Made by a program: the position numbers and the translations under genes. A stretch of DNA of 17,868 bases, from positions 1-17,868 of the IMG/VR virus record IMGVR_UViG_2698536484_000013, one strand, 5' to 3'. Below are positions 10,912 through 17,868 of this stretch, in pieces. Below the pieces are notes generated by a model, which was given only the letters and a program-made list of their open reading frames with translations, did no database searches and had not been told where the DNA came from. The DNA comes from a virus (Duplodnaviria > Heunggongvirae > Uroviricota > Caudoviricetes). Numbering within the stretch: the first letter of the stretch is position 1; every line of letters begins with the position of its first letter.

Positions 10912-11585
10912 TGGAACCCACAATTTATCACCGTATCGACGGTACCAAATACAGGAATGTCTGGGTTGTTGGTGATCTGCATGGTTGCTACACCAGACTG
11001 ATGTCCGAACTCCATCGTGTGGATTTTGACCCGGCGCAGGATTTACTGATATCGGTCGGCGACCTTATCGATCGCGGTACTGAAAATGTCGAATGTCTGG
11101 AACTATTGCAGATGCCCTGGTTCAGGGCAGTGATGGGGAACCATGAGCGGTTGATGCTCGATGCGTTAAGTCCTGATGGCAACGTGAATAACTGGCTAAT
11201 GAATGGCGGACAATGGTTCTTCATGCTGGACACTGATCAGGAAATATTAGCCAGGGCGCTGGTGGAGCTGGTAAAGCGTCTGCCCTATATCATTGAGTTG
11301 AACACCGGGCAAGAAACTATCGTTATAGCCCATGCCGACTATCCGGATAATGAATACCAATTCGGTAAGGAGGTGCCGCTTTTCAACGTTGTCTGGGCGC
11401 GCGAGCGTATCAGTGATTCGATGGATGATATTGGTGGCGAAATTTCGGGCGCAGATCGTTTTATCTTTGGTCACACTCCGGTGAAAAGCCCGAAGACATT
11501 CTGGGATCAGCAGTATATCGACACTGGTGCCGTATTTTGCGGAAACCTGACATTGATGAAAGTGAAAGGTGATGGTGCAGCATGA
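10908..11585 (+). CDS. Ser/Thr protein phosphatase, lambda-PPase (NinI)-like metallophosphoesterase
   Basis: GDLHGC, GDLIDRG and GNHE metallophosphatase motifs; near-collinear with lambda phosphatase as recalled ([20 protein letters not shown]...[14 protein letters not shown]). Start ATG 10908 overlaps the upstream stop; the ORF track start 10893 is less likely. Would correspond to the P1 phosphatase gene if the P1-like context holds. Confidence 0.9.
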
Positions 11586-12283
11586 AGATTGCTTTAGTTT
11601 TTCGCTCTGGTGGTGACTATAACGCTTCCGATGTGCAGTGGCTGGTTAATCAACTGCCAAAAGGCTATGAAATTATTTGCCTGACAGACCTGAAGCGTTT
11701 ACATGTACCTGGCGTCAAAGTTGTCCCATTGATCAACCAGTGGCAAAAGTGCCGTGGCTGGTGGGCGAAAATCGAGTTGTTCCGACCGGATATAACCGAT
11801 GATCTGTTCTATCTGGATTTGGACACGGTTATTGCCGGTGATATACGCCCAATCCTAGAGCATCCACCAACCAGCTTCACCATGCTTAGGGATTTTTACC
11901 ATCCACAATATCGTGGCAGCGGTGCCCTGTGGATACCAAATAGTGTTAAAGCGCATATCTGGAGTTCATTCTGGCAAGATCCGGAAGGTTGGATTTCTCG
12001 TTGTGTCACTACTGAGTGCTGGGGTGACCAGGGGTTCTTACGAAAGGTTATGGGCGATGATACACCAGCATTTCAGGATCTGTATCCAGGATGGTTTGTA
12101 AGTTACAAGGCCGATGTTGTGGAACCTGGTTCAAAATATGCGAGCGCGCGTTACTCCAGGGGGAATGGGGCATTACCAAAAGACTGCCGAATAATCTTTT
12201 TCCACGGCAAACCGCGACCTCGCGAAGTGTCAGAGGATTGGCTTCCCCTTATCAGCTCATTTTTTGAGCGAGAATCAGAATAA
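11582..12283 (+). CDS. GT-A fold glycosyltransferase-like protein (GT8-like: DxD and HxxGxxKP motifs)
   Basis: 233 aa; N-terminal [21 protein letters not shown], DxD in [12 protein letters not shown]-terminal FFHGKPRP resembling the GT8 HxxGxxKPW motif; ATG overlaps the phosphatase stop (ATGA). Family assignment by motif only. Confidence 0.75.
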
Positions 12284-12284
12284 T

Positions 12285-12301
12285 ATTGCTCTAATAATTC
12301 C
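12285..12301 (+). promoter_or_regulatory. C1-operator-like 17-mer ATTGCTCTAATAATTCC (first 13 nt identical to the recalled P1 consensus)
   Basis: Directly follows the stop codon at 12283; forms the left arm of an inverted pair with the site at 12334-12350. Confidence 0.5.
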
Positions 12302-12310
12302 ATATTTTTA

Positions 12311-12339
12311 AAGCGTGATGTACACTCATCACGTTTTTT
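12311..12339 (+). terminator. Rho-independent terminator
   Basis: CGTGATG-tacact-CATCACG perfect 7 bp stem followed by TTTTTT; preceded by AAAG. Confidence 0.7.
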
Positions 12340-12350
12340 ATTAGAGCAAT
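12334..12350 (-). promoter_or_regulatory. C1-operator-like 17-mer in inverse orientation (reverse complement ATTGCTCTAATAAAAAA)
   Basis: Overlaps the terminator T tract; 14 bp upstream of ATG 12365. Confidence 0.5.
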
Positions 12351-12364
12351 CTACAAGGTGCACT

Positions 12365-12583
12365 ATGTGGCCATTCCGACGGAAATATCACTACTGGCTG
12401 ATCGCCTTTGTTACGCCGACCGGCGGTATCAGGCATGTCATCACCAGGTATCGCAACAAGAGACTCACCTTAGCCAGAATTTTACAGGCTGCCATAGGTG
12501 AGGGACTGGATACAAATTGCGTAGTCCTTCCTCCTTCATACTTAGGAAAAATGACCGAAGCACAAGCTAATACGGAACTTTGA
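12365..12583 (+). CDS. Hypothetical small protein (72 aa)
   Basis: AAGGTG 6-7 nt upstream of the ATG; stop is 1 nt before the next start (12585); no recognisable motif. Confidence 0.45.
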   Translation: MWPFRRKYHYWLIAFVTPTGGIRHVITRYRNKRLTLARILQAAIGEGLDTNCVVLPPSYLGKMTEAQANTEL

Positions 12584-12584
12584 A

Positions 12585-13847
12585 ATGAGCACTTCAGCAC
12601 AAAACCAATCAATCGAAAATGTATCTATCCCTGATGTCCTGAATGCCGGTATCCCGGCCATTATCCAGAACATCCGGGCCGCGCAACGCCGCGTTAGTTG
12701 TGATGACCTCACAGCACGTTTTTTTGATAATGCGGTTCAGTCAGCGGAGATGCTTCACGCACAGCTTATTGATGTTTATAACGCAGAAGCTGATAGCCAT
12801 AACTCCCTGGTAGATGCAGCTGAAAATATGCAGTTGGATCTCGGTCTGAAGGGTAAAGAAATTGAAGAGCTTCAGCTGCAAATTGAACATTTGAAACGCC
12901 AGCAACAGGACGCGATCGACGATGCGACGCATGACGCCAACCAGCGTGCTGATAATGCCGAACGTATAAGCATTGAGCTGGAAACAAAACTCAATGGAAT
13001 GACCGCGATGGTTGAACTGCGGAACTCACAGATTTCAACGCTAAAATCTCAATATAAAGAGATCATGAAACTTGATCCTTTTAACCTTGAGAAACGCTAT
13101 AACAAAGCTAAAAGCGAGCGACAGGAACTGCGTAAGCAGGTCGCCGACCTTAACCAACAGCTCAAAAAAACTATTAAAGATGCAAGCGAAGCGCGCGTGG
13201 CATTTGCTAATAAAAAAGCAGAGGTTACCGCGCTGGTTAATGAGAATGCCAAATTTGCGACGCTCAAGAAGGAAATGTATGGCATTACTGAGCGCCGTTT
13301 CCCTGCAAGCAAACTTCATCCGACGTTAGGGCAAATCTCCTTCTTCCCGCGCCTCCTGGCTTATGGGATCTCATCGCCTAAAGAGTTCAATAACGAGCGT
13401 CCTTATATCGTTTCTAAGCTGGACTTTGCTTATCAGTTCTGCTGCGACATGGGCTATGCCATTGATATCCGAATCAACGAATGGTTGATGCCAAACTTCC
13501 AGCCGCTGGCCATTTTCCGCGAGTTCCAGCCGGAAGGTTGGGTAGAGTTCTTCCATGAATTGATCTGTAAAGAGATGGAAAGCCGCCGCCCGGAACTGGT
13601 CCGCCGTGTCGAGTGGGCGCAAGAGGTTATGTTGGCAGATGCAGAGCTGCCGTTCGAACCGGAATTTATTGATGATCTGGCAGCTAAAGGGCTGCATACC
13701 CTGTTTGATGTGGTTACCCGCCGTCATGAGCAGTTGGTTGTCGAATTGGGTTTAGAGGAAACAGCGGCAAGAAGACTTCTCGATGTTTGCTATGCACGTA
13801 GCGATGCATGGGAAAAAGAGAACGGCGGCACTATTTACGTTCGCTGA
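12585..13847 (+). CDS. Coiled-coil protein with C-terminal globular domain (function unknown)
   Basis: 420 aa; residues ~60-230 are heptad-rich (LQLQIEHLKRQQQD..., RQELRKQVADLNQQLKK); C-terminal half aromatic/Cys rich; followed by a strong terminator. Confidence 0.85.
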   Translation: MSTSAQNQSIENVSIPDVLNAGIPAIIQNIRAAQRRVSCDDLTARFFDNAVQSAEMLHAQLIDVYNAEADSHNSLVDAAENMQLDLGLKGKEIEELQLQIEHLKRQQQDAIDDATHDANQRADNAERISIELETKLNGMTAMVELRNSQISTLKSQYKEIMKLDPFNLEKRYNKAKSERQELRKQVADLNQQLKKTIKDASEARVAFANKKAEVTALVNENAKFATLKKEMYGITERRFPASKLHPTLGQISFFPRLLAYGISSPKEFNNERPYIVSKLDFAYQFCCDMGYAIDIRINEWLMPNFQPLAIFREFQPEGWVEFFHELICKEMESRRPELVRRVEWAQEVMLADAELPFEPEFIDDLAAKGLHTLFDVVTRRHEQLVVELGLEETAARRLLDVCYARSDAWEKENGGTIYVR

Positions 13848-13867
13848 CAGTTACAGTGTCACTTTTA

Positions 13868-13900
13868 ATGCTGGTGGAGTGCGCCCACCAGCATTTTTTT
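13868..13900 (+). terminator. Rho-independent terminator
   Basis: ATGCTGGTGG-agtgcgc-CCACCAGCAT 10 bp perfect stem followed by TTTTTT. Confidence 0.75.
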
Positions 13901-13919
13901 CGTCCAATGAGGAGGGCAT

Positions 13920-14426
13920 TTGAGTATTTTCAATAAACATGCACACCAGGAACGTCCGTATATCGTCATAGTCGATATTGATGGAACAATATCAGAGGCA
14001 ACTGAAGACAGACTGCATTTGCTTCCGCCACCAGGTAAAGGTGCATTAACAAAGGACTGGAACGAGTTTAATCTCGCCTGTGACACCGATACTCCCATTA
14101 CTCCAGTTATTGATATGGTGCGCCAGTTATTTAACGTTTACACGGTCTGGTTTGTAACCGGGCGCTGTGAGATCGCAAGGGATAAAACACGAGCCTGGCT
14201 GCGGAAGTACGTAACAAACGGGGCTGAGCCTTTGCTATCTATGCGTCCTGCCACCGATGACACAAATGACGGCCCAGCAAAGATTGATCTCCTTAAGAAA
14301 ATTGGTCTAAGTAAAATCGCGTTCGCGCTGGAAGATAAGATTGAAGTGGCGCGTGTTTTCAGGAGGCACGGCGTGCTTACGTTAATGGTCAGGGAGTATG
14401 AAAATGCGCTTCTTCACCAACAATAA
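13920..14426 (+). CDS. HAD-superfamily phosphatase (DxDGT motif)
   Basis: 168 aa; motif I VIVDIDGTISE near the N-terminus, motif II VWFVTGR, downstream Lys and acidic motifs (DLLKK, LEDK). The only in-frame start upstream of motif I is TTG 13920, with GAGGAGGG SD. Confidence 0.75.
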   Translation: MSIFNKHAHQERPYIVIVDIDGTISEATEDRLHLLPPPGKGALTKDWNEFNLACDTDTPITPVIDMVRQLFNVYTVWFVTGRCEIARDKTRAWLRKYVTNGAEPLLSMRPATDDTNDGPAKIDLLKKIGLSKIAFALEDKIEVARVFRRHGVLTLMVREYENALLHQQ

Positions 14427-14442
14427 TTGCTCTAATAAATCT
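14426..14442 (+). promoter_or_regulatory. C1-operator-like 17-mer ATTGCTCTAATAAATCT (16/17 to recalled P1 consensus)
   Basis: Begins on the last base of the HAD gene stop codon; best of the four matches. Confidence 0.55.
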
Positions 14443-14524
14443 TGATTTTTAAAACAGAGAAAGTGAAAATAAAAACATGCCGCAAGGCGCGGCATGTATC
14501 CAATCAATCACAGGAGCTGAAAAT

Positions 14525-14611
14525 ATGAACACGGCATTCAAAATCATTATGGCCGCGATCTATTTCTGGCTGTTCTCTATCACTTTTGGCGGCATCGTCG
14601 CACATGGGTAA
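14525..14611 (+). CDS. Possible 28-aa hydrophobic micropeptide
   Basis: MNTAFKIIMAAIYFWLFSITFGGIVAHG; CAGGAG SD 8 nt upstream of the ATG; one predicted transmembrane helix. Too short to be confident. Confidence 0.3.
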   Translation: MNTAFKIIMAAIYFWLFSITFGGIVAHG

Positions 14612-14620
14612 GGGGGATGC

Positions 14621-15349
14621 ATGAAAGGCGAAGTGAAAGAGCGCGGCATGATTTTCAACGATGAGATGGTCCGGGCCATCCTCGAAGGAAGGAAAACGCA
14701 GACGCGGCGGATAATGAAAAATCAGCCTGCGGAAGTTGGTCCAGAAGCACCAGTGATGGTTAGAAAAATTGGTGCAGGTTTTCAGTGGTACGGGGCTGAT
14801 GGTGTAAGCAGTGTTTTCAATTGCCCATTTGGTATCGTCGGCGATCGAATTTGGGTTCGTGAAACATGGGCGATATTAGGCAATGAGGATGGTTGCAGTG
14901 TGGACTGGAACGACAACCTTTGTCGTGGCGATGAGAAGAACGCAGCAAGGATTTATCGGGCCAGTTGCGAGCAAAAACCTGGTGATTACGGCTTATGGTC
15001 GATACCCGATGATGCCGACTGGAAACCTCACACTGTGAATGAAAAGTTTGATGGTGGGTGGCGTCCATCAATTCACATGCCGCGATGGGCATCACGCATT
15101 CTGTTGGAAATTACCAACGTGCGCGTTGAACGGTTGAACGATATCAGCGAATGCGATGCAAGGGCTGAGGGCGTTCCGCCTGCTGGAAGTTTGCTTCCTG
15201 ATCACCCGGGAACATTCCTTACTCCCAAGGGGGATTTCGCAATGGCCAAGGTTGCGTTCCAGCGCCTGTGGGAATCCATCTATGGTGAAGAAAGCTGGAA
15301 CGCTAATCCCTGGGTGTGGGTAATCGAGTTTAAGCGCATTCAGGAATAA
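14621..15349 (+). CDS. ASCH (PUA-like) domain protein
   Basis: 242 aa; N-terminal MIFNDEMVRAILEGRKTQTRR fits the ASCH G-x-K...R signature; GGGGG SD 4 nt upstream. Confidence 0.75.
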   Translation: MKGEVKERGMIFNDEMVRAILEGRKTQTRRIMKNQPAEVGPEAPVMVRKIGAGFQWYGADGVSSVFNCPFGIVGDRIWVRETWAILGNEDGCSVDWNDNLCRGDEKNAARIYRASCEQKPGDYGLWSIPDDADWKPHTVNEKFDGGWRPSIHMPRWASRILLEITNVRVERLNDISECDARAEGVPPAGSLLPDHPGTFLTPKGDFAMAKVAFQRLWESIYGEESWNANPWVWVIEFKRIQE

Positions 15350-15432
15350 ACCGTGAGTATGCATCAAATCGTCAGTTTTTCAGGTGGACGAGCATCGGCC
15401 TGTCTCGTTCATCTGTTCGAAGAGGTAGTGGC

Positions 15433-15636
15433 ATGACAATCGTAAAAACCCATACCGGCACCGTGATCACCAAAGACGGTCCGCAGGTAAAAAAACTGCA
15501 CCAAACAGAGCGGATGTGGGGCGTCGGCAAAAATGAGTTTTACCACAAAGATACCGGACGCCGCCACTTTGCAGAAAATACGCGCCGTCGTCTGCTGTTA
15601 GACACCATCAAGCCTATCGAGGTGAAGCATGTTTAA
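15433..15636 (+). CDS. Hypothetical small basic protein (67 aa)
   Basis: GAGG SD about 8 nt upstream; overlaps the next ORF by 8 nt. Confidence 0.55.
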   Translation: MTIVKTHTGTVITKDGPQVKKLHQTERMWGVGKNEFYHKDTGRRHFAENTRRRLLLDTIKPIEVKHV

Positions 15637-15868
15637 ACAGAACGAAAAAGCTATCGCTCAAATTGCTGATTATATCCCGCGTGCGTGCCGGGGTATGCAG
15701 TTGCAGGAAGCCAAAGCGCGCCTGGAGAAAAAAATTGCGCTCTATATTGATGACGGCTGTGATGCTGCCGTTCTTAACGCGGCGTTCGCACCAGCTCTTA
15801 ACAGTCATACTCGGGAGTCTTTTTTTTCGTGCATCGAAGCGCAACTCCGCAAAGGAGGCAGCCAGTGA
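15629..15868 (+). CDS. Hypothetical small protein (79 aa)
   Basis: Start overlaps the upstream gene; stop overlaps the GTG start of the Ea22-like gene (GTGA). Confidence 0.55.
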   Translation: MFKQNEKAIAQIADYIPRACRGMQLQEAKARLEKKIALYIDDGCDAAVLNAAFAPALNSHTRESFFSCIEAQLRKGGSQ

Positions 15869-16362
15869 GCGAAATTAATTACCAGGCACTGCGTGAGGCG
15901 GCAGAACGTGCAACTCCAGCAATGGAACGCCTGTTAATGTTGCCAGTTGATGATGATTTGTTAAGTGAACAGGAACTTAAAGATTACGGTGTGGATATTG
16001 ATGCGCTCAACGCCTTCAAATTTCTGACCGGACCAGAAACCGTGCTGGCACTACTGGATGAACGGGAAGCAGACAAAAAGCGCATTGCAGAACTGGAAGC
16101 ACGGGAAATAAAACCAGCCAAAGGTGAAGTTCTTGTCGTTGTTTCTGGTTTTACTGGTTGCGGAAAAAGCGCCATTGCCGGGGAAATAGAAATCGCGATG
16201 AAGGCTATTGGTGTACCGGTTCAGTGGACTAATGGCGATGCGGAAAAGCGCATGACAGGAGCTGACTGGCTGACAGCGATTGAGATGTACAAACCAACAG
16301 TGCGCATCGTGGAAGTTAATGTGCCACGCGCCGCAGGCATTCGCATCAAAGAGGGTGAGTAG
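15865..16362 (+). CDS. Ea22-like family protein
   Basis: GTG 15865 with AAGGAGG SD 6 nt upstream; N-terminal SEINYQALREAAERA, central LLDERE...KRIAELEA, C-terminal AGIRIKEGE, matching the Ea22 pattern recalled from lambdoid prophages. The ORF track start 15829 is a non-SD upstream start codon. Confidence 0.8.
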   Translation: MSEINYQALREAAERATPAMERLLMLPVDDDLLSEQELKDYGVDIDALNAFKFLTGPETVLALLDEREADKKRIAELEAREIKPAKGEVLVVVSGFTGCGKSAIAGEIEIAMKAIGVPVQWTNGDAEKRMTGADWLTAIEMYKPTVRIVEVNVPRAAGIRIKEGE

Positions 16363-16367
16363 TGCGT

Positions 16368-16538
16368 GTGGCATGTATCGGTTTGTTACCGTACCCGACT
16401 CGTTTTTGGGCTTCTGCGCTAATTGCAAAGCCACATGTCCTGATGGCTGACAACATCATCCCGGCACCAAAGCGCCGCCATACCGGTATTGCAGCGGCAC
16501 GACGAGCAGCAAAGAGACGCAGGAGAGCAAAGCGATGA
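16368..16538 (+). CDS. Possible small protein with Arg/Lys-rich C-terminus (56 aa)
   Basis: GTG 16368 with GAGGGTGAG upstream; ends ...AAARRAAKRRRRAKR; stop overlaps the ATG of the next ORF (ATGA). Below the ORF-track size cut-off. Confidence 0.3.
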   Translation: MACIGLLPYPTRFWASALIAKPHVLMADNIIPAPKRRHTGIAAARRAAKRRRRAKR

Positions 16539-16711
16539 AAAACCGTAAGGCAAAACGACTTTTTTTACAGCGACCTGTGCGTGTGGTGGAGCTGGTTATT
16601 AGCAACCATAAGATAGCGGTACTCCATCCATTTGGTCAGGTGGCTTTTGCCGCAAAGCGTAAGCCTACTGCGTCACAGAACAGGCGGAAGAAAGGGTACG
16701 CAGTAAGATGA
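16535..16711 (+). CDS. Small basic protein, paralogue 1 (58 aa, MKNRKAKRL...)
   Basis: Begins with the same first 7 codons as the next ORF (ATGAAAAACCGTAAGGCAAA vs ATGAAAAACCGTAAAGCAAA) and shares KP(T/S)A(S/A)QNR near the C-terminus; stop overlaps the next start (ATGA). Confidence 0.5.
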   Translation: MKNRKAKRLFLQRPVRVVELVISNHKIAVLHPFGQVAFAAKRKPTASQNRRKKGYAVR

Positions 16712-16896
16712 AAAACCGTAAAGCAAAGATTCTGTTAGTTCGTAGAAACGCTCCTGGCGTCTGGCAGTGGGTGAGACTCAGCAACCGACGGATGGGGTTG
16801 ATGAAATATTACGGGGTGATGGATTGTGGTTTTTGCAAAAAGCCCAGCGCGGCGCAAAACCGCTGGAAAAACCACTTGCGCACTAAAGGAGAGTGA
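16708..16896 (+). CDS. Small basic protein, paralogue 2 (62 aa, MKNRKAKIL...)
   Basis: ORF in the track; tandem duplicate of the preceding small ORF; contains CGFC. Confidence 0.6.
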   Translation: MKNRKAKILLVRRNAPGVWQWVRLSNRRMGLMKYYGVMDCGFCKKPSAAQNRWKNHLRTKGE

Positions 16897-16897
16897 T

Positions 16898-17107
16898 ATG
16901 GCTATCGCTGCAAGTTACACCATGCATCTCTATTGTGATTGCCTCCAATGTACAGATGGCAAATATAAGTCGCCAGACTTCGGTGAGTATATAGGTACGT
17001 CATGGGCTGGCTGTGCAAAAGAGGCGCGCAAGGATGGCTGGCGAATAAGCAAAGACAAAACGCGTGCTTTTGCGCCCGGGCATAAAGTTTTGAGGATTAA
17101 CAAATGA
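16898..17107 (+). CDS. Small cysteine-rich protein (69 aa), probable metal-binding
   Basis: ATG 16898 with AAAGGAGAG SD 5 nt upstream; HLYCDCLQC...GC cluster. The track ORF start at 16826 lies inside the upstream gene. Confidence 0.6.
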   Translation: MAIAASYTMHLYCDCLQCTDGKYKSPDFGEYIGTSWAGCAKEARKDGWRISKDKTRAFAPGHKVLRINK

Positions 17108-17868
17108 CCACTATAACCAAAGATCGACTACTGACAATCAAGCAGTGGCGCGAAACATACGGACCGGGTAGCAACGTTGTACTGCCAGCAGAAGAAGCGG
17201 AAGAACTGGCACGGATTGCTCTGGCATCGCTGGAAGCAAAACCAATAGGTGCATTCCACATTGCAGAACAGCAAGTTGACGGCACAAGTGACTACCTCAA
17301 GGATGGAGAATGGCCTATTGATAATGGAATTATTGAGGTCTACGCCGCTCCCCCCGTTCCAGTAGTACCGGAAGAAAAACCAATGCCTAATCCTCTTAGC
17401 ATGTACGCGGTTGATGCTGTTGCCGCTATTGCAGAGGTGAGAGGCTGGAACGCCTGCCGTGCCGCTATGCTTCAGTCCGGAAACTTTCGGGAAAACAAGA
17501 ATTCGTCAACCAATAATTTTCGGGAAATCGCGGAAACGTCAACCAACTATCCGGTAATTCCTAGTGAGGTGTTGTCCGCAATCCAGAAGGTTGTCAAGAT
17601 TCGTGTCGATTTCGATGATTTTGACGGTGACAGGCGAGGTATCGGTGATTGTCTGGATGAGGCTGAGCAAGAGCTTATCGTTACCATTAACAAATATGCC
17701 AGTCAGTTGGCAGCAGAACCTATAGCGCCTAATGACGTTCGAGAGCAGACAGCCATTCCGCAAGTTCCGGTAACTCCGGATGGTTGGATAAGCTGTAGTG
17801 AGCGAATGCCGAATACCAAAACAGCCGTTCTTGTTGCCGTGGAGTTTGACAGGAAAGGTGACTGGCGA
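17104..17868 (+). CDS. Eaa-like protein with DUF551-type C-terminal region (3' end truncated by the window)
   Basis: Open frame from ATG 17104 (overlaps the upstream stop, ATGA) to the window end, checked codon by codon; PDGWISCSERMPNTKTAVLVAVEFDRKGDW matches the DUF551 pattern of lambdoid Eaa proteins; contains an in-frame 33-nt imperfect tandem duplication. Confidence 0.75.
   Translation, partial: MTTITKDRLLTIKQWRETYGPGSNVVLPAEEAEELARIALASLEAKPIGAFHIAEQQVDGTSDYLKDGEWPIDNGIIEVYAAPPVPVVPEEKPMPNPLSMYAVDAVAAIAEVRGWNACRAAMLQSGNFRENKNSSTNNFREIAETSTNYPVIPSEVLSAIQKVVKIRVDFDDFDGDRRGIGDCLDEAEQELIVTINKYASQLAAEPIAPNDVREQTAIPQVPVTPDGWISCSERMPNTKTAVLVAVEFDRKGDWR
17485..17550 (+). repeat. Imperfect in-frame tandem duplication, 2 x 33 nt
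   Basis: tttcgggaaaacaagaattcgtcaaccaataat / tttcgggaaatcgcggaaacgtcaaccaactat (25/33 identical), encoding FRENKNSSTNN / FREIAETSTNY inside the Eaa-like ORF. Confidence 0.7.

Follow-up and report, generated by a model that had tools for sequence, protein, structure and literature searches.

Near its 3′ end, a viral DNA sequence of 17,868 nucleotides (positions 1 to 17,868 of the IMG/VR record IMGVR_UViG_2698536484_000013; hereafter, the window) contains a chain of four very small, tightly packed open reading frames, orfA to orfD (A–D below). Do these ORFs form a functional set whose products are made in a fixed ratio, possibly similar to a toxin–antitoxin system, as the original prediction suggested, or are they separate genes? 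Comparison with homologous loci makes it likely that each is a small accessory gene, mobile on its own, of the type found in the early "exo-xis/ea" (sometimes "nin") regions of lambda-like phages, and that all four reside here in a P1-like phage-plasmid.

Genomic Context

The window belongs to a P1-like phage-plasmid. The P1 reference aligns to positions 1057–15315 with 99.1–99.2% identity, 97% of the window is covered by P1-like plasmids at 99.3% identity, and the DNA of phage RCS47 and plasmid pTB423 is 98.6% and 99.5% identical to that of the window, respectively. An Rfam search over the whole window gave a tRNA at 1066–1138 as the only match, and none at the micro-ORFs. The features surrounding the four ORFs are as follows:

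14426..14442, + strand: P1 C1-repressor operator OpmgT (Op88), ATTGCTCTAATAAATCT, one mismatch to the consensus, 0.01 chance matches expected
14621..15349, + strand: pmgT-like gene (P1 annotation); homology to P1 stops at about 15315, within the 3′ end of the gene
15433..15636, + strand: small ORF (67 aa) from the ORF list, opening the non-P1 module
15629..15868, + strand: second small ORF (79 aa) from the ORF list, at the opening of the same module
15865..16362, + strand: Ead/Ea22-like gene (Pfam PF13935, E = 2.6e-20, match beginning at SEINYQ)
17104..17868, + strand: DUF551-domain gene (Pfam PF04448, E = 1.3e-7), open at the window end

The two small ORFs overlap by 8 nt (ATGTTTAA) and have no match in Pfam or NCBIfam. 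The probable start of the Ea22-like gene is the GTG at 15865, which forms a GTGA overlap with the ORF before it. The gene at 17104 also carries the DUF551 annotation in RCS47 and pTB423. A "variable region 8" (pmgT...humD) of P1-like phage-plasmids has been published (PMC9603915), and here a lambdoid exo-xis/ea-type module occupies the variable region that follows OpmgT, the C1 operator. Apparently, this module, which runs from the Ea22-like gene through A, B, C, and D to the DUF551 gene and further, displaced the 3′ end of pmgT and the sequence beyond it.

The operator is located in a position homologous to that of the annotated OpmgT/PpmgT in P1 (NC_005856); judging by the operator match and the P1 annotation, a C1 operator overlapping a promoter precedes the genes. 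The + strand operon to which the micro-ORFs belong is probably controlled from this operator. Between 14428 and 17590, a simple consensus scan of the + strand revealed neither terminator-like nor promoter-like sites, and no + strand terminator-like site was predicted by a simple scan from OpmgT to the window end; the scan for promoters and terminators gave no more sites than in shuffled sequence. Upon loss of repression, A–D would be co-transcribed from the C1-controlled pmgT promoter, as the P1 annotation and the terminator scan suggest, and expression linked to induction would be consistent with the presence of this operator upstream.

Organization of the Four ORFs

The chain consists of the following ORFs:

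16362..16538, + strand: orfA, 58 aa, GTG start, pI 12.0 (PHROG 13831, E = 8.6e-42, full-length match, residues 1–58 of 58)
16535..16711, + strand: orfB, 58 aa, pI 12.0, upstream paralog (PHROG 1380, E = 6.5e-23, residues 1–58)
16708..16896, + strand: orfC, 62 aa, pI 11.3, downstream paralog (PHROG 1380, E = 2.3e-40, residues 1–62; PHROG 12350, E = 7.2e-42)
16898..17107, + strand: orfD, 69 aa from ATG, pI 9.2 (PHROG 926, E = 1.5e-36, residues 1–69 of 69)

All four predicted ORFs are thus present, and their products are, as expected, small and very basic. The start of orfA had been placed at 16368; the most likely start is at 16362, since the homologs have ATG or GTG at exactly that codon. The ATGA overlaps proposed for the whole chain link A to B and B to C, whereas C and D are separated by a 1-nt spacer (TGAtATG) and do not overlap. 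The Ea22-like gene and orfA share one nucleotide (TAGTG), and orfD is connected to the DUF551 gene by ATGA. In this series, the stops and starts overlap or abut (TAGTG, ATGA, ATGA, TGAtATG, ATGA), and the micro-ORF junctions are conserved across loci. Such junctions are, however, usual throughout the window, P1 structural genes included, so the micro-ORF chain is not unusual in itself. A Shine–Dalgarno (SD) sequence precedes every start in A–D. Together with the stop/start overlaps, this makes translational coupling plausible; at the same time, since each start has its own SD, independent initiation is possible, and translation of A–D may be a mixture of direct initiation and termination–reinitiation coupling. 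The description of the products as cysteine-containing holds for A (one Cys), C (two), and D (four); B has none. The Cys pair of C is not conserved in its family, and three of the four Cys residues of D are invariant.

Coding Capacity

The comparison of homologs indicates that A–D are genuine protein-coding genes whose frames are under purifying selection. The pN/pS values, based on 11–23 unique sequences per family, are 0.34 for A, 0.33 for B-type, 0.50 for C-type, and 0.26 for D, and in all four ORFs variable columns are most numerous at the third codon position. The frames are intact in 77 of 77 loci for A, 38 of 40 for B, 83 of 84 for C, and all 51 for D, which in itself is weak evidence because most loci in the sample are closely related. 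Conservation of the reading frames had been named in advance as one of the checks, and it is accompanied by a constant A–D gene order in all homologous loci surveyed. Gene calls differ between the records: B and D are annotated in RCS47 (RefSeq), C and D in pTB423 (PGAP), and only D in 933W.

The MKNRKAK Family: orfB and orfC

orfB and orfC are true paralogs, in agreement with the tandem duplication proposed earlier. Their products are 37% identical over 54 aa, and this likeness is beyond chance given the BLASTP E-value of 1e-9 and the shared PHROG 1380. Both carry all the motifs of this PHROG, namely, the N-terminal MKNRKAK.L, the central SN[RH][RK], and the C-terminal KP[ST]A[AS]QNR, and in the alignment of the MKNRKAK family these columns are invariant or near-invariant. 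The KP(T/S)A(S/A)QNR motif is indeed common to B and C, with codons that differ synonymously between the copies; it is also preserved between tail types via synonymous changes, which indicates a constraint at the protein level. The direct repeat at the beginning of the two genes is real, but it comprises 21 nt with one mismatch (16534–16554 versus 16707–16727) and not 20 identical nucleotides; the MKNRKAK codons of B and C differ at two synonymous sites (Lys5, AAG versus AAA; Lys7, AAA versus AAG).

The B product contains the B-type core ISNHK.AV..FG.V.FA and an internal-type tail, QNRRKKGYAVR. orfC, with 60 database homologs, ends in a terminal-type tail, KPSAAQNRWKNHLRTKGE. Cores of the B type are also found in two diverged loci, L084 (about 50% diverged, again in the upstream copy) and L087 (in the sole copy), and the tandem MKNRKAK pair of phiV10 is made of two other core types. 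The family is confined to phages of E. coli, Salmonella, and Shigella, and a contig scan of 185,579 species-representative genomes revealed no relative.

In the MKNRKAK genes, the DNA is almost invariant at the first 7 and the last ~17 codons. Nucleotide identity amounts to 95% in codons 1–7 (seven core types), about 45% in the core, and 90% in the terminal-type tails, the cores of the copies with such tails being 44% identical; when orfB of RCS47 is compared with the first phiV10 copy, the tail is 94% and the core 30% identical. The type of C-terminal tail follows what comes after the copy, not the core type it carries, and there are hybrid proteins (e.g., P0019) that fuse two core types at the SNRR motif. 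Two conserved segments of this kind are located in the window:

16506..16554, + strand: A/B junction linker found in the junction survey, with SD AGGAG, the ATGA overlap, and codons 1–7, ATGAAAAACCGTAAGGCAAA, which are near-invariant
16849..16900, + strand: 3′ tail of orfC with its linker, AAAGGAGAGTGAtATG, the linker being the SD and start codon for the next gene

The latter sequence was found before at least six different downstream genes.

Several other candidates in orfC were rejected. The similarity to a C2H2 zinc finger (Pfam zf-C2H2_jaz) scored 13.4 bits against a cut-off of 22.6, without a second His; even weak matches occur in only 2 of the 31 family members, and a zinc finger in C is rejected because its Cys residues are not conserved. 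The alternative-frame ORF at 16767–16886 (GETQQPTDG...) is represented only by calls over-extended at the N terminus or by frame-shifted variants from single contigs. The 5′ arm of a 12-nt inverted repeat (16826/16864) lies within the non-conserved core. The AlphaFold model of the orfC product is of low confidence (pLDDT 71, pTM 0.34).

orfA and orfD

The 85 database homologs of orfA are all hypothetical proteins. In their alignment, the N-terminal half is variable and the Arg-rich tail TGIAAARRAAKRRRRAKR is conserved. The start is TAATG in 46 loci and TAGTG in 25, with an SD of the GGAGGTGA type upstream; a single base change sets both the ATG or GTG start of orfA and the TAA or TAG stop before it. 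orfA of 933W has an in-frame deletion of 7 codons. The Arg/Lys-rich tail predicted for this ORF is present, but it is partly a by-product of reading a purine-rich, SD-containing junction, across which its codons are AGA CGC AGG AGA GCA AAG CGA TGA. In other loci, the same junction DNA in a different frame encodes the Ea22 tail ...DAGEQSDEKP, and in loci without orfA the end of Ea22 leads straight into the junction preceding MKNRKAK. The orfA cassette is bracketed by a direct repeat found in the repeat search:

16343..16353 (left) and 16506..16516 (right), + strand: 11-nt direct repeat GCAnCAAAGAG

The N terminus of the N proteins of lambda and P22 is an RNA-binding peptide with an arginine-rich motif. 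By sequence, orfA resembles such peptides in having a short, very Arg-rich, and probably helical segment, AAARRAAKRRRRAKR. Unlike that of N, however, this segment is C-terminal, and the SD-containing junction, read in other frames elsewhere, supplies part of the coding sequence of the tail. A search near the micro-ORFs for a boxB-like hairpin found none.

The orfD product contains the LYCDCxxC ... GW ... AP.H signature of PHROG 926; a 93-aa reading extended to a GTG at 16826 is also open. Close homologs all share C13, C15, C18, G47, and H62, and in 55 distant relatives C13 and G47 remain invariant and Y12 and W48 nearly so. The family is large, with 394 clusters found by profile search. The predicted structure (pLDDT 77.8, pTM 0.61) and the invariant C13, C15, C18, and H62 suggest that this is probably a small alpha/beta protein that binds zinc or is stabilized by it. 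Uncharacterised phage proteins were the only matches in a Foldseek search against BFVD. Kinship with the homeodomain/zinc-finger proteins similar to lambda Ea8.5 was considered and dropped, as the similarity to the solved Ea8.5 homologs was not found. A 697-aa match (P0226) was rejected as a relative of orfD: it is a protein with fibronectin type II repeats, and the match is a false positive due to composition. orfD also occurs away from A–C, including Kosakonia and Pantoea prophages that have no MKNRKAK gene.

Combinations Across Loci and a Proposed Cassette Model

In the 84 loci compared, the combinations are ABCD (13), ABC (27), ACD (25), ACCD (1), AC (10), CD (5), and C alone (3), and whatever the combination, the order of the micro-ORFs is the same. 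In 933W and in P22-like/lambdoid prophages, homologous modules separate the recombination genes from xis/int; in phages of the phiV10 type, they follow the replication genes. The distribution indicates that each of A–D is acquired, lost, or duplicated independently of the others. In the window, A is bracketed by the two copies of the 11-nt repeat and B by those of the 21-nt one. The nearly invariant DNA ends of the MKNRKAK genes around a hypervariable core fit cassette exchange at conserved linker junctions.

In the modular evolution of lambdoid phages described by Susskind and Botstein, short conserved sequences at gene boundaries, the mosaic "linkers", flank interchangeable segments. In the MKNRKAK genes, the first 21 and the last ~50 nt are similarly conserved around divergent cores, as are the SD–stop–start junctions. 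The difference is that the MKNRKAK linkers are located within the coding sequence of a 60-aa protein, so that exchange alters the core and leaves the protein termini as they are; we infer recombination at these sites. The conserved junctions may serve twice, as ribosome-binding sites and as short regions of homology, and recombination at them could insert, delete, swap, or duplicate cassettes, the B–C pair being a possible example of duplication.

Functional Interpretation and Alternatives

Nothing above threshold was found for A–D in Pfam, NCBIfam, and PADLOC scans, and neither searches of PDB sequences, with single sequences and profiles, nor fold searches gave a significant match. The products of A–C are very basic (pI 11.3–12), with polar or basic residues (K, R, N, Q, S) at their conserved positions. 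Judging by this composition, their most likely activity would be the binding of nucleic acid, or of an acidic partner of host or phage origin, early after induction.

Alternatively, A–C, and perhaps D, could be anti-defence or host-takeover factors, in which case the hypervariable MKNRKAK core would be the result of an arms race against a variable target in the host or a rival phage and not of nucleic-acid binding. An early, repressor-controlled accessory region, the independent presence or absence of each ORF, several very different core types within one conserved scaffold, and the restriction of the MKNRKAK family to phages of three enterobacterial hosts would all suit such a role. However, there is no homology link, the A–D sequences do not appear in the supplementary tables of two phage accessory-gene screens, the conserved residues are typical of nucleic-acid contacts, and pN/pS is below 1 overall. 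We regard this explanation as unlikely. An equally doubtful, bolder reading is that the MKNRKAK protein is a polymorphic effector, whose fixed ends provide a scaffold or shared activity and whose core, swapped as a cassette by recombination at intragenic linkers of invariant DNA, sets specificity, and that orfD is the founder, in this window, of a large unrecognised family of zinc-binding phage proteins (~394 clusters at 50% identity, no Pfam model). If so, the candidate targets would include rival phages, defence proteins of the host, and sites on DNA or RNA, and tandem MKNRKAK copies would widen the target range.

Another question is whether orfB arose when orfC was duplicated by accident and is now decaying, with no function of its own. 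About half of the loci lack it, a frameshift truncates it in 2 of 40, and it does not have the terminal-type tail and Cys pair of C. Nevertheless, its core represents an old lineage, as the diverged L084 and L087 loci indicate, the B-type pN/pS is 0.33, and the phiV10 pair combines two other core types, so decay of B is quite improbable.

It is still less probable that some or all of the ORFs are untranslated, their frames being incidental and their conserved ends being DNA or RNA elements, such as a regulatory RNA, linkers for recombination, or sites at which ribosomes load for the larger neighbouring genes. The almost invariant silent sites of the first 7 codons and the tail around the divergent cores, the reading of the same junction DNA in different frames, the retention of the ends in rare frame-shifted variants (P0054, P0060), and the inconsistent annotation of the micro-ORFs could be understood in this way. 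On the other hand, third-position bias and pN/pS below 1 are characteristic of all four ORFs, variable cores included; core positions keep their hydrophobic or polar character across core types; the QNR motif is preserved although the tail types differ in the synonymous codons used for it; the loci keep their start codons and SD sequences; and no Rfam family was found here. The RNA fold of 16480–16920 is no more stable than shuffled sequences (z = 0.29), and for this reason the RNA-element reading was dropped. The near-invariant silent sites at the MKNRKAK ends could nevertheless reflect an unrecognised DNA or RNA function instead of recombination.

Finally, a fixed-stoichiometry complex or a set similar to toxin–antitoxin modules, with equimolar synthesis ensured by overlapping translation, is extremely improbable despite the tight stop/start overlaps, the small basic products, and the fixed gene order, because the ORFs occur independently in the 84 loci, D is present in prophages without MKNRKAK genes, B and C are paralogous, unlike toxin–antitoxin pairs, Pfam, NCBIfam, and PADLOC gave no match to toxin–antitoxin or defence families, and overlapping junctions are general in this genome. 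The likeness of A–D to type II modules lies in their being small, adjacent, and joined by stop/start overlaps; in contrast to the obligate co-occurrence of such modules, the components are found apart, in at least seven combinations, and neither a toxin fold nor an antitoxin DNA-binding domain was detected. The comparison of loci thus argues that A–D are not a toxin–antitoxin unit.

Known Relatives and Significance

In line with the preferred reading, A–D are ordinary accessory genes, already catalogued in PHROG families and uncharacterised. Direct homologs are p49–p52 of phiV10, p08/p07 of VT2-Sakai, L0068 of 933W, and gp057/gp056 of RCS47 (PHROGs 13831, 1380, and 926), and the records bearing homologs belong to lambdoid, Stx, epsilon15-like, and P1-like phages, with hypothetical products. 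The order in phiV10, VT2-Sakai, 933W, and RCS47 is the same as in the window: the Ea22-like gene, A, one or more MKNRKAK copies, D, and the DUF551 gene. The records differ in the number of MKNRKAK copies, in core types, and in whether A and D are present, but not in anything substantive. The paralogy of B and C is already on record, as the phiV10 entry notes a resemblance between p50 and p51. A–D are also similar to the small genes of the lambda exo-xis region (orf60a, orf61, orf63, orf73, ea8.5, ea22) in being early, repressor-controlled, small, tightly packed, and adjacent to an Ea22-type gene. A variable downstream gene set with duplications has been described for Stx phages in a review of this region (PMC8614690). 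The exo-xis literature that was examined does not treat A–D, and the string MKNRKAK was not found in the literature searched.

Some part of the block is carried by 1042 of 5426 complete E. coli genomes (about a fifth), and among its carriers are Shiga-toxin phages and also P1-like plasmids through which resistance genes spread. For biology at large, the confirmation of inconsistently annotated micro-ORFs as real conserved genes is of little import. Invariant ends combined with a swappable core represent a tidy small-scale case of modular phage evolution, and this pattern could guide the choice of constructs in functional screens. If the function of A–D were found, it would have a bearing on the early events after induction in Stx phages and P1-like plasmids.

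Genomic Context of the Module

The sequence of the window identifies it as a P1-like E. coli phage-plasmid. Plasmids of the P1 type cover 97% of it with an identity of up to 99.3%, and the reference P1 genome matches positions 1057–15315 (99.1–99.2%). The P1 homology ends at about position 15315, in the 3′ end of pmgT. Downstream of this break are two small ORFs, an Ead/Ea22-like gene (Pfam, E = 2.6e-20), the four tiny packed ORFs orfA–orfD (A–D), and a DUF551 gene. Such a module (exo-xis/ea-type) is what lambda-like phages typically have in their early accessory regions, so a P1-like phage-plasmid has taken up lambdoid early accessory genes. The module occupies 'variable region 8' (pmgT...humD) as published for P1-like phage-plasmids, in which pmgT is known to be replaced by clusters of genes without known function (PMC9603915). 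The features are as follows:

1066–1138 (+), tRNA gene (Rfam RF00005, 62.3 bits), at the start of the P1-reference homology
14426–14442, P1 C1-repressor operator OpmgT/Op88 ATTGCTCTAATAAATCT, upstream of the module, directly after the pap gene
15433–15868 (+), two small ORFs (67 aa and 79 aa, 8-nt overlap) preceding the Ea22-like gene
15865–16362 (+), Ea22-like gene
16362–16538 (+), A, 58 aa, GTG start
16535–16711 (+), B, 58 aa
16708–16896 (+), C, 62 aa
16898–17107 (+), D, 69 aa counted from ATG (93 aa in the alternative GTG-extended reading from 16826)

For the Ea22-like gene, GTG 15865 (GTGA overlap) is the probable start rather than 15829; the two ORFs preceding it have no match in Pfam or NCBIfam. 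A P-loop-like GFTGCGKS motif lies in the C-terminal portion of the Ea22-like product, together with weak, sub-threshold Pfam matches to APS_kinase and AAA_16.

The OpmgT site has one mismatch to the consensus (0.01 expected by chance), and a scan found no + strand terminator-like site downstream of it. From this and the P1-like context, we infer that the A–D module belongs to a repressor-controlled early operon. In 933W, the corresponding module lies downstream of pL, between exo/bet and xis/int, likewise in P22-like prophages, and the position of the module in the window appears to mirror that place.

Several other signals can be noted. A weaker operator-like site with two mismatches is located at 8661–8677 (−), and a strong terminator-like intrinsic hairpin at 13867–13895 (+), after pmgS. 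The hairpin at 14475–14497, after pap, has a T-run on the − strand only, so + strand transcription from PpmgT should not stop there. The best promoter-like match of the region (17137–17110, − strand, TTGTCA-16-TATAGT, 10/12) is antisense at the D/DUF551 junction; promoter-like sites are no more numerous than in shuffled sequence. The interval from the C1 operator to the pmgT-like gene contains a strongly hydrophobic 28-aa ORF (MNTAFKIIMAAIYFWLFSITFGGIVAHG; 14526–14612, +) with an AGGAG Shine-Dalgarno (SD) sequence, which could encode a small membrane peptide; P1 (NC_005856) has no CDS annotated at the homologous place.

Junctions and Gene Content

The junctions are TAGTG (Ea22-like/A), ATGA (A/B, B/C, and D/DUF551), and TGAtATG with a 1-nt spacer (C/D). 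The chain of four small ORFs in the original prediction is real with small corrections: A most probably starts at GTG 16362, and the ATGA links hold at A/B and B/C but not at C/D. TAATG, ATGA, GTGA, and 8-nt overlaps are found all over the window, P1 structural genes included, and junctions of this type are not peculiar to the A–D stretch.

Synteny, proposed as a check, holds for gene order, which is constant in 84 sources (Ea22 > A > B > C > D > DUF551), but not for content. The MKNRKAK gene (B, C, and their homologs, named after the N-terminal residues) is single in about half of the loci and an overlapping pair in about half; in some loci, D is also found elsewhere.

Gene content of the surveyed loci
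ABCD: 13 loci
ABC: 27 loci
ACD: 25 loci
ACCD: 1 locus
AC: 10 loci
CD: 5 loci
C alone: 3 loci

Junction DNA is conserved regardless of the genes joined. The sequence ...GCAGGAGAGCAAAgCG-ATGAAAAACCGTAA lies upstream of every first MKNRKAK copy and ...AAAGGAGAGTGAtATG downstream of every last one, and the AAAGGAGAGTGAtATG junction gives an SD and start codon to six or more different genes that follow it. An 11-nt direct repeat (16343, 16506) brackets A, and a 21-nt repeat brackets B. In loci without A, the Ea22-like gene reads through the junction in another frame, ending ...DAGEQSDEKP at a TAA inside ATGAAAAACCGTAA; some A variants also carry this tail. Part of the Arg-rich end of A, the poly-basic tail noted originally, is thus the SD linker, which is rich in purines, translated in one of its frames.

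Some prophages differ in the slot directly before the last MKNRKAK gene: in L088 (2825–3004) it is occupied by another small gene, encoding a 59-aa DUF7446 protein, and in L084/L085 (2828–3004) by a B-type (upstream paralog) copy. An identical 4-nt overlap joins either of them to the next gene.

Anatomy of the MKNRKAK Family

The predicted tandem duplication is borne out: B and C share the MKNRKAK N-terminus and are paralogs (BLASTP, 37% identity, E = 1e-9). The residues are the same in both, but the codons, described as identical, differ synonymously at two of seven; at the DNA level, the repeat spans 21 nt and contains one mismatch (16534–16554 vs 16707–16727).

Seven types of core, the variable middle of the gene, were compared at the DNA level. 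Codons 1–7 have 95% DNA identity, four-fold degenerate sites included, the core 45% among core types, and the tail (the conserved 3′ end) 90% among last-in-array copies. The tail type goes with array position, not with the core: upstream copies end in QNRRKKGYAVR, overlapping the next ATG, and last copies in QNRWKNHLRTKGE. Comparing RCS47 B with phiV10's first copy gives 94% identity in the tail and 30% in the core, locus L087 combines a B-type core with a last-copy tail, and hybrids fused at the central SNRR motif exist (protein P0019). The motif previously noted in B and C, KP[ST]A[SA]QNR, is kept between both tail types via synonymous changes, which points to protein-level constraint too. 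Modular patterns with exchange at short conserved linkers are classical in lambdoid phages. The MKNRKAK pattern can be read as such cassette exchange by recombination at linkers, and the B–C pair as one of its products.

Both the location of the genes and the hypervariable core are compatible with an anti-defence role, which we consider a rather unlikely but not negligible reading. Decay of B as a duplicate is improbable, since the B-type lineage is old and conserved.

Evidence That A–D Are Genes

All four ORFs have full-length matches to existing PHROG families without known function: A to 13831 (E = 8.6e-42), B and C to 1380 (E = 6.5e-23 and 2.3e-40), and D to 926 (E = 1.5e-36). Their database homologs are only hypothetical or 'prophage' proteins. 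The frames, whose conservation had been proposed as a check, are intact in 77/77 (A), 38/40 (B), 83/84 (C), and 51/51 (D) loci.

pN/pS and variable columns at codon positions 1, 2, 3 (unique homologous DNA sequences drawn from 94 loci)
A: 0.34; 8, 6, 15
B-type: 0.33; 22, 17, 36
C-type (downstream paralog): 0.50; 36, 30, 49
D: 0.26; 37, 32, 62

Each start is preceded by its own SD, that of A being of the GGAGGTGA type. The start codon of A is ATG (46 loci) or GTG (25 loci), and this start and the upstream stop (TAA/TAG) are switched together by one base change; the 7-codon deletion in 933W A is in frame. That A–D are non-coding is very improbable: the substitution patterns and the conserved starts and SDs oppose it, the RNA fold is unremarkable (z = 0.29), and there is no Rfam match. 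Annotation is uneven: the phiV10 record has all four and remarks on p50/p51 similarity, RefSeq RCS47 has B and D, PGAP on pTB423 has C and D, and 933W has D alone, as N-extended L0068.

A 39-aa open frame (GETQQPTDGVDEILRGDGLWFLQKAQRG...) at 16767–16886 (+) overlaps orfC in another frame. Its translation is seen in database proteins as an N-terminal over-extension of the following gene and in rare MKNRKAK variants with a double frameshift (P0041, P0054, P0060); these occurrences are probably gene-calling or assembly artefacts.

Predicted Properties and Distribution

A–C are extremely basic (pI 12.0, 12.0, and 11.3; D, 9.2), and the conserved residues of B/C are K, R, N, Q, and S. Judging from composition alone, A–C would bind nucleic acid or an acidic partner, and D may have a zinc-stabilised fold. 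In close homologs of D, C13, C15, C18, and H62 are invariant, and distant members usually have an extra Cys four residues before the His; the family consensus (P0193–P0332) is MIxxGYxLxLYCDCxxC...GW...C.AP.H. P0316, a member of the family, also carries a fused HTH_17 DNA-binding domain. The D family has no Pfam model, and its profile matched only plant ZF-HD homeodomains in the PDB, marginally (E = 0.028). For C, a weak, below-threshold match to zf-C2H2_jaz was rejected; its two Cys are not conserved in the family. The suggested toxin–antitoxin-like or fixed-stoichiometry set is the least credible reading, because the ORFs occur independently, B and C are paralogous, and Pfam, NCBIfam, and PADLOC gave no family match.

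The region is matched by 303 phage records (RCS47 is 98.6% identical) and, in some part, by 1042 of 5426 complete E. coli genomes, at 949 chromosomal and 343 plasmid places; in only 47 genomes does the match extend over 80% or more of the four-ORF block. A search of 185,579 species-representative genomes gave no member of the MKNRKAK family. The D family is far broader (394 clusters at 50% identity in a profile search), with members in Enterobacter, Pantoea, Kosakonia, Buttiauxella, Aliagarivorans, and a Klebsiella myovirus.

Significance of the Module

We consider it probable that A–D are genuine early accessory genes that move independently of one another. They would be transcribed together from the C1-controlled promoter, their translation may be coupled, and the conserved junctions would have two roles, binding ribosomes and providing linkers for recombination. 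Among characterised genes, those of the lambda exo-xis region come nearest, in position only; neither in sequence nor in fold do they show detectable similarity to A–D. The nearest relatives are on deposit as hypothetical genes of phiV10, VT2-Sakai, 933W, RCS47, and many plasmids, and a review of the exo-xis region had already pointed to downstream genes that vary and are duplicated in Stx phages (PMC8614690). The chain, accurately described originally, is therefore an ordinary feature, already catalogued and uncharacterised. What is added is modest: evidence that all four ORFs are genes, a description of how linkers and cassettes are arranged in MKNRKAK genes, and the extent of the D family.
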